Source: Candidatus Bathyarchaeota archaeon RBG_16_48_13 (GTDB lineage: Archaea > Thermoproteota > Bathyarchaeia > RBG-16-48-13). Taken from it: a stretch of DNA of 64,000 nucleotides. Below the pieces are notes generated by a model that was not told the origin of the DNA, ran no database searches, and was given only the letters and a program-made list of their open reading frames with translations. A program made the position numbers and the translations under genes. Shown piece by piece: positions 51,258-52,293 of the stretch. Each line of letters opens with the position of its first letter. The first letter of the stretch is position 1. The stretch covers positions 123,761-187,760 of the forward strand of contig MEZH01000007.1 of assembly GCA_001775995.1 (NCBI GenBank). The letters are read 5' to 3'.

Positions 51258-52293
51258 TCAGCCTTTGTCGTTTTCAGTTTTGCGCGTCTGCCACATCCTG
51301 GGATAGGTTCCAGGTGACATCAGCACCCTCTCTGATTTGGCCGCTATTCCATGATCAAAGTTTAGGATATCATCAGTCGCCATGGCGGCTTTCGCGAGCG
51401 CAACAACTTCGCCCTTCTGAGTAAAGAGCGCAACTTCATCGTTAGCCTTTATATCGCTTTCCAAACTCACCACGCCTGGGACAGCGAGACTTGCCCCATG
51501 GCAGATGGCATCCACTGCAGAATCTCTCAGATAGATCTTGGGTATGAATTTCAAGCAATCTTCCATTGGCCGAACTATGTGTCTCACCTCTTCCTCGTTT
51601 CCTTCCTTCAACCACTTCGAGCAGGCATCTGAAAGGGTCTGCAGTGTAGTGAGAGAACGGTCTTCCACGAAGGGGCCAGTTCTTGTCCTTCGGAGTTCTC
51701 TCATATGAGCGCCGCATCCTAGAACTTCCCCGATATCGTAGCATATCTTCCGAATATACGTGCCTCCTTGACAACTCGTATGAAACAAGACGTGGTTCTG
51801 CGATATCTCCAGAACCTCCAAGCTGTAAATAGTCCTTATTCTGACTTCTCTTTTGACAGAAGAGCGAACGGGAGGCTTCTGATATATTGGTCCGACAAAC
51901 TCTTTGAAGATTCTCCTTATAGCTTCCTCAGATGCCAAGCCATGGAGCCTCATTACACAAACATATTCTTTTCCCGTAAGAAGAAGAGACTGAAGACTTT
52001 TCGTAGCCTCCTCTAAGGCTATCGGTAAGACGCCAGATACGTTGGGGTTTCCTCGACCTTCCCTAGATCTCTAAGGTCCCACCGTGTCCGGCGCGTTCGA
52101 TATTCATAATCCGTTTAACCCAAGCAACAACCTCATGGCTTGTAGGCCCCGGAGGTTTATCCAAATTTATTACACCATACCTGAGGTGGTTTCGAAAAGA
52201 TCTATTCTCAGGCGTACAACCATACTTTGGATCGGTCTCCTCAGATGCCTTAGCCAGGAGGCTGCGCGTGATCTCCCAAGGGGGAGTTGCCAA
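51258..52293 (-). CDS. cbf5: H/ACA snoRNP pseudouridine synthase Cbf5 (TruB family + PUA), interrupted by a 22-nt BHB mRNA intron; join(complement(52071..52293),complement(51258..52048))
   Basis: Exon 1 ends '...[33 protein letters not shown]'. Exon 2 continues '(D)[16 protein letters not shown]...KEYVCVMRLHG...YQKPP...' in a different frame. Removing 52049..52070 restores the catalytic '[12 protein letters not shown]' motif and a 337-aa protein. Confidence 0.75.
52049..52070 (-). other. Predicted bulge-helix-bulge mRNA intron within cbf5 (AGAUCUAGGGAAGGUCGAGGAA)
   Basis: Fold: exon GGG / CCUU / AG|A / GAUC-loop-GGUC / GAGG / AA|A / CCC exon. This gives two 3-nt bulges separated by a 4-bp helix, with each cut after the second bulge nucleotide. 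Confidence 0.65.

Follow-up and report, generated by a model that had tools for sequence, protein, structure and literature searches.

Known cbf5 introns and related elements

The element analyzed here, a 22-nt insert within the cbf5 gene of Candidatus Bathyarchaeota archaeon RBG_16_48_13, has its closest described counterpart in the short cbf5 intron of Crenarchaeota. The insert lies in a stretch of 64,000 nt, called the window below (assembly GCA_001775995.1, contig MEZH01000007.1, positions 123,761 to 187,760), which belongs to a metagenome-assembled genome (MAG) from aquifer sediment (Rifle). The crenarchaeal intron is placed between nucleotides 1 and 2 of the triplet that encodes the catalytic Asp, measures 16 to 44 nt, and mostly folds into an unconventional bulge-helix-bulge (BHB) motif that is cut between the second and third bulge residues (Yokobori 2009; PMC2738675). 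In the same study, Desulfurococcales and Sulfolobales had the intron, and Thermoproteales, Cenarchaeum, Nitrosopumilus, and Korarchaeum lacked it; its authors proposed that it was gained once, in the ancestor of the first two orders, with loss within Desulfurococcales. In reviews from 2020 and 2023, the cbf5 intron is still restricted to Crenarchaeota or a small set of related archaea. Cleavage of cbf5 pre-mRNA by the heteromeric form of the tRNA-splicing endonuclease, EndA, and splicing in vivo have been shown for Sulfolobus and Aeropyrum, as cited in PMC2738675 and PMC10485636. Searches of the open-access literature for a cbf5 intron in Bathyarchaeota or under related names yielded no report.

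When the window is compared with the crenarchaeal cbf5 intron (Aeropyrum pernix, Sulfolobus spp., and Desulfurococcales; Watanabe 2002; Yoshinari 2006), the gene and the insertion point are shared, the size class is alike (22 nt against 16 to 44 nt), neither element contains an open reading frame (ORF), and the same relaxed BHB motif is seen, with cuts after the second bulge nucleotide. The differences are that the host belongs to Bathyarchaeota and not to Desulfurococcales or Sulfolobales, that the hairpin sequence is unrelated, and that splicing is here predicted.

Non-canonical archaeal tRNA introns lie at positions other than 37/38. They have the same BHB motif and the same presumed enzymes, (αβ)2 or ε2 EndA of broad specificity, as the cbf5 element of the window, whereas the cbf5 substrate is an mRNA without a tRNA body, so that recognition must rest on the BHB alone, and the outcome is the restoration of a reading frame. 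The intron in the 5' untranslated region of Haloferax volcanii HVO_1309 (Schwarz 2020; PMC7714728) likewise represents an EndA-dependent BHB in an mRNA, but it occupies an untranslated leader, splits no codon, comes from a euryarchaeon with an α2 EndA, and is unrelated in sequence and gene.

Our analysis leads us to read the insert as an archaeal BHB pre-mRNA intron in the cbf5 of a member of the Bathyarchaeota, located at the site used in Desulfurococcales and Sulfolobales, which would be cut by EndA and ligated by an RtcB-type enzyme. We place the probability of this reading at about 0.9.

An interrupted cbf5 gene in a Bathyarchaeota genome

The features of the gene are as follows, with the start codon and the Shine-Dalgarno-like element read from the sequence.

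52301..52305, minus strand: GGAGG, Shine-Dalgarno-like, 7 nt upstream of the exon-1 TTG
52293..52291, minus strand: TTG start of exon 1
52071..52293, minus strand: cbf5 exon 1, with DKCLD and the start of TruB_N up to GHGGTL; G 52071 is base 1 of the Asp codon
52049..52070, minus strand: 22-nt BHB intron AGAUCUAGGGAAGGUCGAGGAA, assigned from the sequence and from frame restoration
52065..52063, minus strand: in-frame UAG in the intron, the third codon after Leu
51258..52048, minus strand: cbf5 exon 2, in which AC completes GAC (Asp), followed by PNVSG and the remainder of TruB_N, TruB_C_2, and PUA
51260..51258, minus strand: cbf5 stop codon, in exon 2

The original prediction described cbf5 as divided between two ORFs in different frames, and both are present as described: an exon-1 ORF of 76 aa (52063..52293, minus strand), whose C terminus reads AGHGGTLEI before the stop, and an exon-2 ORF of 231 aa (51258..51953, minus strand) in another frame. 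On the minus strand, the sequence at the junction is ...GGG ACC TTA G + AGATCTAGGGAAGGTCGAGGAA + AC CCC AAC GTA.... Deletion of the 22 nt at 52070..52049, as had been proposed, gives an ORF of 1,014 nt that reads ...ACC TTA GAC CCC AAC GTA... and encodes 337 aa; the predicted spliced junction is ACCUUAG-ACCCCAAC. The assignment of the gene as cbf5 is borne out by the joined protein, which scores 459 bits against the NCBIfam Cbf5 equivalog (cut-off, 242), contains the Pfam domains DKCLD, TruB_N, TruB_C_2, and PUA, and can be aligned with the Pyrococcus Cbf5 structures 2aus and 2hvy without a gap over the junction and the surrounding GHGGTLDP region (E = 3e-113). The placement of the junction in the catalytic motif also holds, as the insert splits the Asp codon after its first base, just where the published intron lies (PMC2738675).

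The expectation that such a gene would be mis-annotated is likewise upheld. In the protein collection, the exact 231-aa exon-2 ORF is absent and the 76-aa exon-1 peptide is found only as ENA gene calls, and in related genomes the gene is called as two fragments. The public NCBI record of RBG_16_48_13 appears to have no Cbf5 protein.

A relaxed BHB motif at the junction

The insert and its flanking exon sequence fold into the following elements, in which an arrow marks the predicted cut.

52044..52080, minus strand: whole BHB motif, from RNAfold and comparative covariation
52080..52077 (GGGA) with 52047..52044 (CCCC), minus strand: exon helix h, three G-C pairs and an A·C mismatch
52076..52073 (CCUU) with 52054..52051 (GAGG), minus strand: central helix H, 4 bp
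52072, 52071 ↓ 52070, minus strand: 5' bulge AG↓A
52069..52065 (GAUCU) with 52059..52055 (AGGUC), loop 52064..52060, minus strand: intron hairpin h'
52050, 52049 ↓ 52048, minus strand: 3' bulge AA↓A

From 5' to 3', RNAfold gives GGG, CCUU, the bulge AGA, the hairpin GAUCU-AGGGA-AGGUC, GAGG, the bulge AAA, and CCC, that is, a central helix of 4 bp, a clean 5' bulge of 3 nt, and a hairpin of 5 bp. The CCUU strand of the central helix is formed by the Thr-Leu codons and the GAGG strand by the 3' end of the insert. When the BHB rule of cutting after the second bulge nucleotide is applied, UUAG↓A and GGAA↓A result, and the cut positions that had been put forward are thus exactly those that restore the frame and remove 22 nt.

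The motif had been described as a canonical hBHBh' structure. The central helix of 4 bp and the two 3-nt bulges stand, but the strict form does not: the 5' bulge is closed by the 5 bp of h', whereas in h the three G-C pairs are followed by an A·C mismatch before the 3' bulge, which arises from the GAC codon. With the A of ACC opposite the C of GAC, the 3' AAA lies within a 1x3 internal loop (1x4 in another register). The window motif is therefore a relaxed BHB and not a strict hBHBh'. An intron hairpin is present, as expected, but a stem of 5 bp with a 5-nt loop is likelier by RNAfold than the 4 bp and 7-nt loop originally given.

As a separate observation, the flanking exons pair beyond the BHB (52027..52092, minus strand), with GCGCCGGA.CGG.UGGG opposite CCCA.ACG.UCUGGCGU and a folding energy of -29.8 kcal/mol for 82 nt; the codons for AGHGG and VSGV are partly complementary. 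This extended exon pairing might predispose the site to a BHB intron.

The insert in related loci

One relative, L001, lies on a JGI contig of independent origin; its exon-2 protein shares 93% identity with that of the window, and its 22-nt insert differs from the window's only by an A-to-C change in the loop. Synonymous divergence (dS) between the two is 0.24, and the ratio of nonsynonymous to synonymous divergence (dN/dS) is 0.125 (0.14 for the shared part of exon 1 and 0.12 for exon 2), from which purifying selection on both exons in the joined frame is evident. Synonymous sites have changed more than the insert has.

When the 76-aa exon-1 peptide was used as a query, 947 clusters were retrieved. 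In the best 120 of these, all but one (119) are fragments of 74 to 107 aa that end 2 to 27 residues past GHGGTL, most commonly, among the listed clusters, as GHGGTLEA before a stop. Every locus that was fetched around such fragments has an exon-1 ORF followed by an ORF with TruB_N, TruB_C_2, and PUA. A scan of genome contigs with the joined protein gave a single locus, in a GTDB Bathyarchaeia genome (L002; 54% identity), where the insert is 20 nt long.

A larger set was assembled from a metagenome scan with the pattern SHE[VI]xAW, 30 nt, GHGGTL, and then GRR, to which at least 120 stretches correspond. The listed matches, the loci found earlier, and the window together make up 120 distinct junctions (at least 120 exist; loci are numbered L001 to L140), and the relatives originate from JGI, ENA, NCBI, and Logan assemblies built from a wide variety of samples. 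Junction counts given below refer to this set. In 120 of 120 junctions, an insert of 16 to 47 nt is found at the same nucleotide.

At the lower end of this range, a JGI contig of about 100 kb (L066; Ga0080006, match at 1790-1858) encodes a Cbf5 that has diverged strongly (46% identity to the closest intron-less protein of the set) and is interrupted by a 16-nt insert at the same site. Its central helix and bulges are intact and no intron hairpin is predicted (ACGCAAGUU); this insert may come near to a minimal intron.

Conservation of the BHB structure

The layout h(4)-B(3)-H(4)-B(3)-h' can be fitted to 120/120 junctions. The 5' bulge is AG↓A in 105/120 and the 3' bulge AA↓A in 68/120. The Asp codon is GAU in 100/120 junctions, in which the 3' bulge is strict and perfectly closed; the window has GAC. 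The hairpin stems are wholly different in sequence and vary from 3 to 15 bp, and they always abut the bulges. In unconstrained minimum-free-energy folds with 12 to 30 nt of flank, the central helix is recovered in 97 to 100 of 120 junctions and both bulges are open in 73 to 76.

Pairing statistics were computed on 77 distinct BHB cores. Paired positions account for 98.4% in the central helix, 96.1% in the intron hairpin, and 78.9% in the exon helix, and when the partner strand is slid by one to three columns as a control, pairing falls to 30 to 57%. Double-sided changes number 83, compared with 21.8 ± 3.6 in shuffles, none of which (0/500) reaches 83. The covarying positions of the exons are synonymous sites: 70 junctions have a C-G pair and 49 a U-A pair at the third position of the Thr codon, and 111 have C-G and 7 have U-A at the first position of the Leu codon. 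Compensatory changes of this kind argue that the predicted BHB structure has been maintained in evolution.

These data bear directly on two explanations that do not involve splicing. The locus could be a pseudogene or the product of a sequencing or assembly frameshift, with 22 nt of junk and no functional Cbf5 made from it, and the division of the gene between two frames with a stop codon would fit this, as would the absence of the exon-2 ORF from the annotated proteins of the NCBI record. However, as the same insert is present in the independent assembly L001, it is not an assembly error, and its identical position in every junction, the dN/dS across both exons of the joined frame, and its covariation with synonymous exon sites, by which the BHB is kept, all contradict this explanation; we regard it as extremely unlikely.

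Alternatively, cbf5 could be a genuinely split gene, in which polypeptides of 76 aa and of about 231 to 260 aa assemble without any RNA splicing, as might be supposed from the two ORFs called at every locus. The break, however, lies inside the catalytic Asp codon, so that neither piece encodes the Asp. In the window, the first in-frame ATG, GTG, or TTG past the junction is at 51953, 31 codons downstream and beyond the DPNVSG catalytic motif, and a reading of the sequence near the 5' end of exon 2 reveals no start signal comparable to the GGAGG of exon 1; nor is a start signal conserved at the junction across loci. The BHB covariation, too, has no place in this explanation, which we consider very unlikely.

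In-frame stop codons in the insert

Insert lengths divide by three with remainders 0, 1, and 2 in 27, 42, and 51 junctions, respectively, without a preference for multiples of three, and the presence of all three classes indicates that the insert is not translated. An in-frame stop, read in the frame of exon 1, occurs in 83/120 introns, compared with 32.8 ± 4.8 in shuffled inserts (maximum of 52 in 500), although the sequences are phylogenetically related and the excess is hence suggestive and not a formal test. Stops in the other two frames are found in 12 and 24 introns. The enrichment was noted for intron positions 1-12. Every insert whose length is a multiple of three (27/27) contains a stop. 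The excess of stops suggests selection against translation of the unspliced message. The open-access literature examined makes no mention of an excess of in-frame stops in cbf5 introns.

Programmed ribosomal frameshifting, or translational bypassing (hopping) over the 22 nt, could be considered in this context, as 22 nt correspond to a +1 shift and the +1 frame of the window is open through the insert. A +1 shift would, however, replace the catalytic Asp by RSREGRGN. The inserts of the relatives, at 16 to 47 nt, fall into all length classes and many contain stops, matched take-off and landing codons are lacking, and the conserved item is an RNA structure typical of EndA substrates. The chance that a translational event of this type accounts for the locus is practically negligible. 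Group I and group II introns were rejected as candidates, the insert being far too short.

Distribution and origin of the intron

The original prediction stated that protein-coding introns of this kind are known only in cbf5 of Crenarchaeota and in very few other archaeal genes; the host of this locus is a Bathyarchaeota MAG outside the described clade. Pyrobaculum, which had been named as a source of cbf5 introns for comparison, is a poor choice, as it belongs to Thermoproteales, which lack the cbf5 intron.

A link to the known intron group is provided by L027, a 105-kb metagenome contig that serves here as the representative of the known crenarchaeal group. Its KdpA and type III RuBisCO fall into clusters, at 90% identity or more, that are named Thermogladius sp. 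or T. calderae (Desulfurococcales), and the assignment of L027 to Thermogladius ties the junction set to that group. The 24-nt intron of L027 reads CCCU AG↓A GCCCUC-GUGAA-GAGGGC GGGG AU↓A together with its flanks; it agrees with the intron of the window in site, 5' bulge (AG↓A), and layout, and shares little conserved interior sequence with it. A soil-derived group of intron-bearing loci was considered as Nitrososphaeria and this was rejected, as the named matches of its SecY are Bathyarchaeota (81% and 73% identical). The remaining named relatives are all Bathyarchaeota or Bathyarchaeia. From these comparisons, the putative intron in the catalytic codon of cbf5 is widespread in Bathyarchaeota and systematically mis-annotated.

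In many Bathyarchaeota, Cbf5 is uninterrupted and GHGGTLDP is contiguous. On a rough neighbor-joining (NJ) tree of 83 intron-bearing and 117 intron-less Cbf5 proteins, the two states are interspersed, and at least 13 changes (Fitch) are needed to explain them. In the mixed pair of highest identity, L022 (with an intron) and P0117 (uninterrupted), the proteins are 88.7% identical, which suggests that one Bathyarchaeota subgroup recently lost or gained the intron. The patchy distribution indicates repeated loss, repeated gain, or both, as read from a rough NJ tree of a single protein.

In a comparison aimed at common descent, the Bathyarchaeota and crenarchaeal introns agree in site and in 5' bulge, and the interior is too short and too variable for homology to be shown. 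It is possible, though we lean away from it, that the Bathyarchaeota insertion arose convergently at the same codon and is not homologous to the crenarchaeal intron, with the same splicing mechanism and a different history. The interspersed states with their at least 13 changes and the mixed pair could be taken in this way, as could the scarcity of shared interior sequence between the window and Thermogladius, and the conserved coding sequence GGN ACN YUN GAY CCN, which supplies half of the BHB, could be a preferred target. Set against convergence are a position that is identical to the nucleotide, the prevalence of the AG↓A 5' bulge across the junctions, and the layout shared with the Desulfurococcales locus L027; patchiness is, moreover, explained equally well by repeated loss, for which there is a precedent within Desulfurococcales (PMC2738675).

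A neighboring tRNA-Ser gene with a second predicted substrate

Two further features lie close to cbf5.

51023..51130, minus strand: tRNA-Ser(GGA) gene, 128 nt downstream of cbf5, with encoded CCA
51100..51082, minus strand: tRNA-Ser intron of 19 nt, a non-canonical BHB intron inside the 5' strand of the anticodon stem

Over the whole window, this tRNA-Ser was undetected by ARAGORN at default settings and with Rfam gathering thresholds, Rfam giving no match at all; with E-value thresholds around the locus, Rfam recovers the T-arm of the tRNA only, scored as a tmRNA fragment. When the 19 nt are removed, ARAGORN at default settings finds a perfect 89-nt tRNA-Ser(GGA). An intron placement at 32/33, given by ARAGORN with relaxed settings, was rejected because it leaves the anticodon stem mismatched, whereas the chosen placement gives five perfect stem pairs. 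The intron has a central helix GAGC/GCUC and bulges AG↓A and AA↓G, which resemble those of the cbf5 intron, and the same endonuclease is predicted to act on it as a second substrate. With a non-canonical BHB intron in the adjoining tRNA-Ser, the organism must be able to process such substrates. Relaxed motifs are cut efficiently only by (αβ)2 and ε2 endonucleases (PMC6379350).

Proposed mechanism and points against it

Under the splicing model, cbf5 would be transcribed together with its ribosomal-protein neighbors, and in the transcript the CCUU of the Thr-Leu codons in exon 1 would pair with the GAGG at the 3' end of the intron, with the hairpin and the exon-exon helix flanking the bulges. 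EndA would then cleave each bulge past its second nucleotide (..UUAG↓A.. and ..GGAA↓A..), and an RtcB-type ligase would join the exons, so that GAC, the codon of the catalytic Asp, and the frame of 337 aa are recreated. Unspliced mRNA would be translated only to the UAG at the third intron codon, giving a 76-aa fragment without the active site.

Several points weigh against this model. Cleavage by EndA, ligation, and splicing in vivo are here carried over from work on Sulfolobus and Aeropyrum, and a crude regular-expression scan of the window, which is a weak test, yielded no EndA or RtcB motif. The 3' bulge of the window lacks Watson-Crick closure on its exon side (A·C), and its cleavage would need an endonuclease that tolerates relaxed motifs. 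RNAfold recovers the predicted BHB elements, as had been anticipated, but stability above that of shuffled sequence is not seen: the fold has -13.7 kcal/mol against -13.5 ± 2.95 kcal/mol in dinucleotide shuffles (z = -0.07), and the claim that the structure exceeds chance consequently rests on geometry and on the other loci, not on energy. Finally, among the full-length proteins of the collection, identity to the joined product goes no higher than 63%, and a second, intact cbf5 may exist elsewhere in the genome, outside the one window analyzed.

Gene neighborhood

The surroundings of cbf5 correspond to an archaeal ribosomal-protein cluster, with SecY, adk, an EMC3-like gene, cmk, L14e, cbf5, the tRNA, S13, S4, S11, and RpoD. 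The SecY, enolase, RpoD, and mevalonate kinase of the window match proteins of RBG_16_48_13, on a contig of 323 kb, with full identity. Within this cluster, the cmk frame (about 52621..53150, minus strand) is open from the stop of the EMC3-like gene through the P-loop (ITISGLHGTGKST) and has no ATG, GTG, or TTG ahead of the P-loop; the listed ORF begins at an internal TTG and is only 136 aa long. The cmk gene could start at a non-canonical codon (CTG or ATA after GGAG), or there could be a problem with the sequence. In related loci (L003, L004, and L020), L34e sits between the EMC3-like gene and cmk. It is missing there in the window (52651..53212, minus strand), which has no room for the gene.

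Implications

For annotation, the analysis means that gene callers split cbf5 in two in hundreds of Bathyarchaeota assemblies. Cbf5 (TIGR00425) is a member of archaeal marker-gene sets, and the split could affect estimates of genome completeness.

The 120 natural variants constitute a ready covariation set that defines what an mRNA BHB needs, namely, an invariant position, the AG↓A and AA↓A bulges, a 4-bp helix that includes the Thr-Leu codons, and a hairpin of any kind with 3 to 15 bp.

More broadly, cbf5 is one of only two documented EndA-spliced archaeal mRNAs, and its range would be extended to a large, globally abundant, and mostly mesophilic lineage. The proposal that the intron was gained once, ancestrally to Desulfurococcales and Sulfolobales (PMC2738675), needs re-examination. 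It may be speculated, as a tentative proposal that we would not favor at present, that the intron is no peculiarity of a single hyperthermophile clade but an old and selectively kept feature of Thermoprotei and Bathyarchaeota, or a site that has been re-invaded, and that it acts as a checkpoint which ties the synthesis of Cbf5 to EndA and RtcB, with the stop codon limiting the unspliced message to a harmless 76-aa fragment. If such a checkpoint exists, synthesis of the H/ACA pseudouridine synthase would be dependent on the activity of EndA and RtcB.

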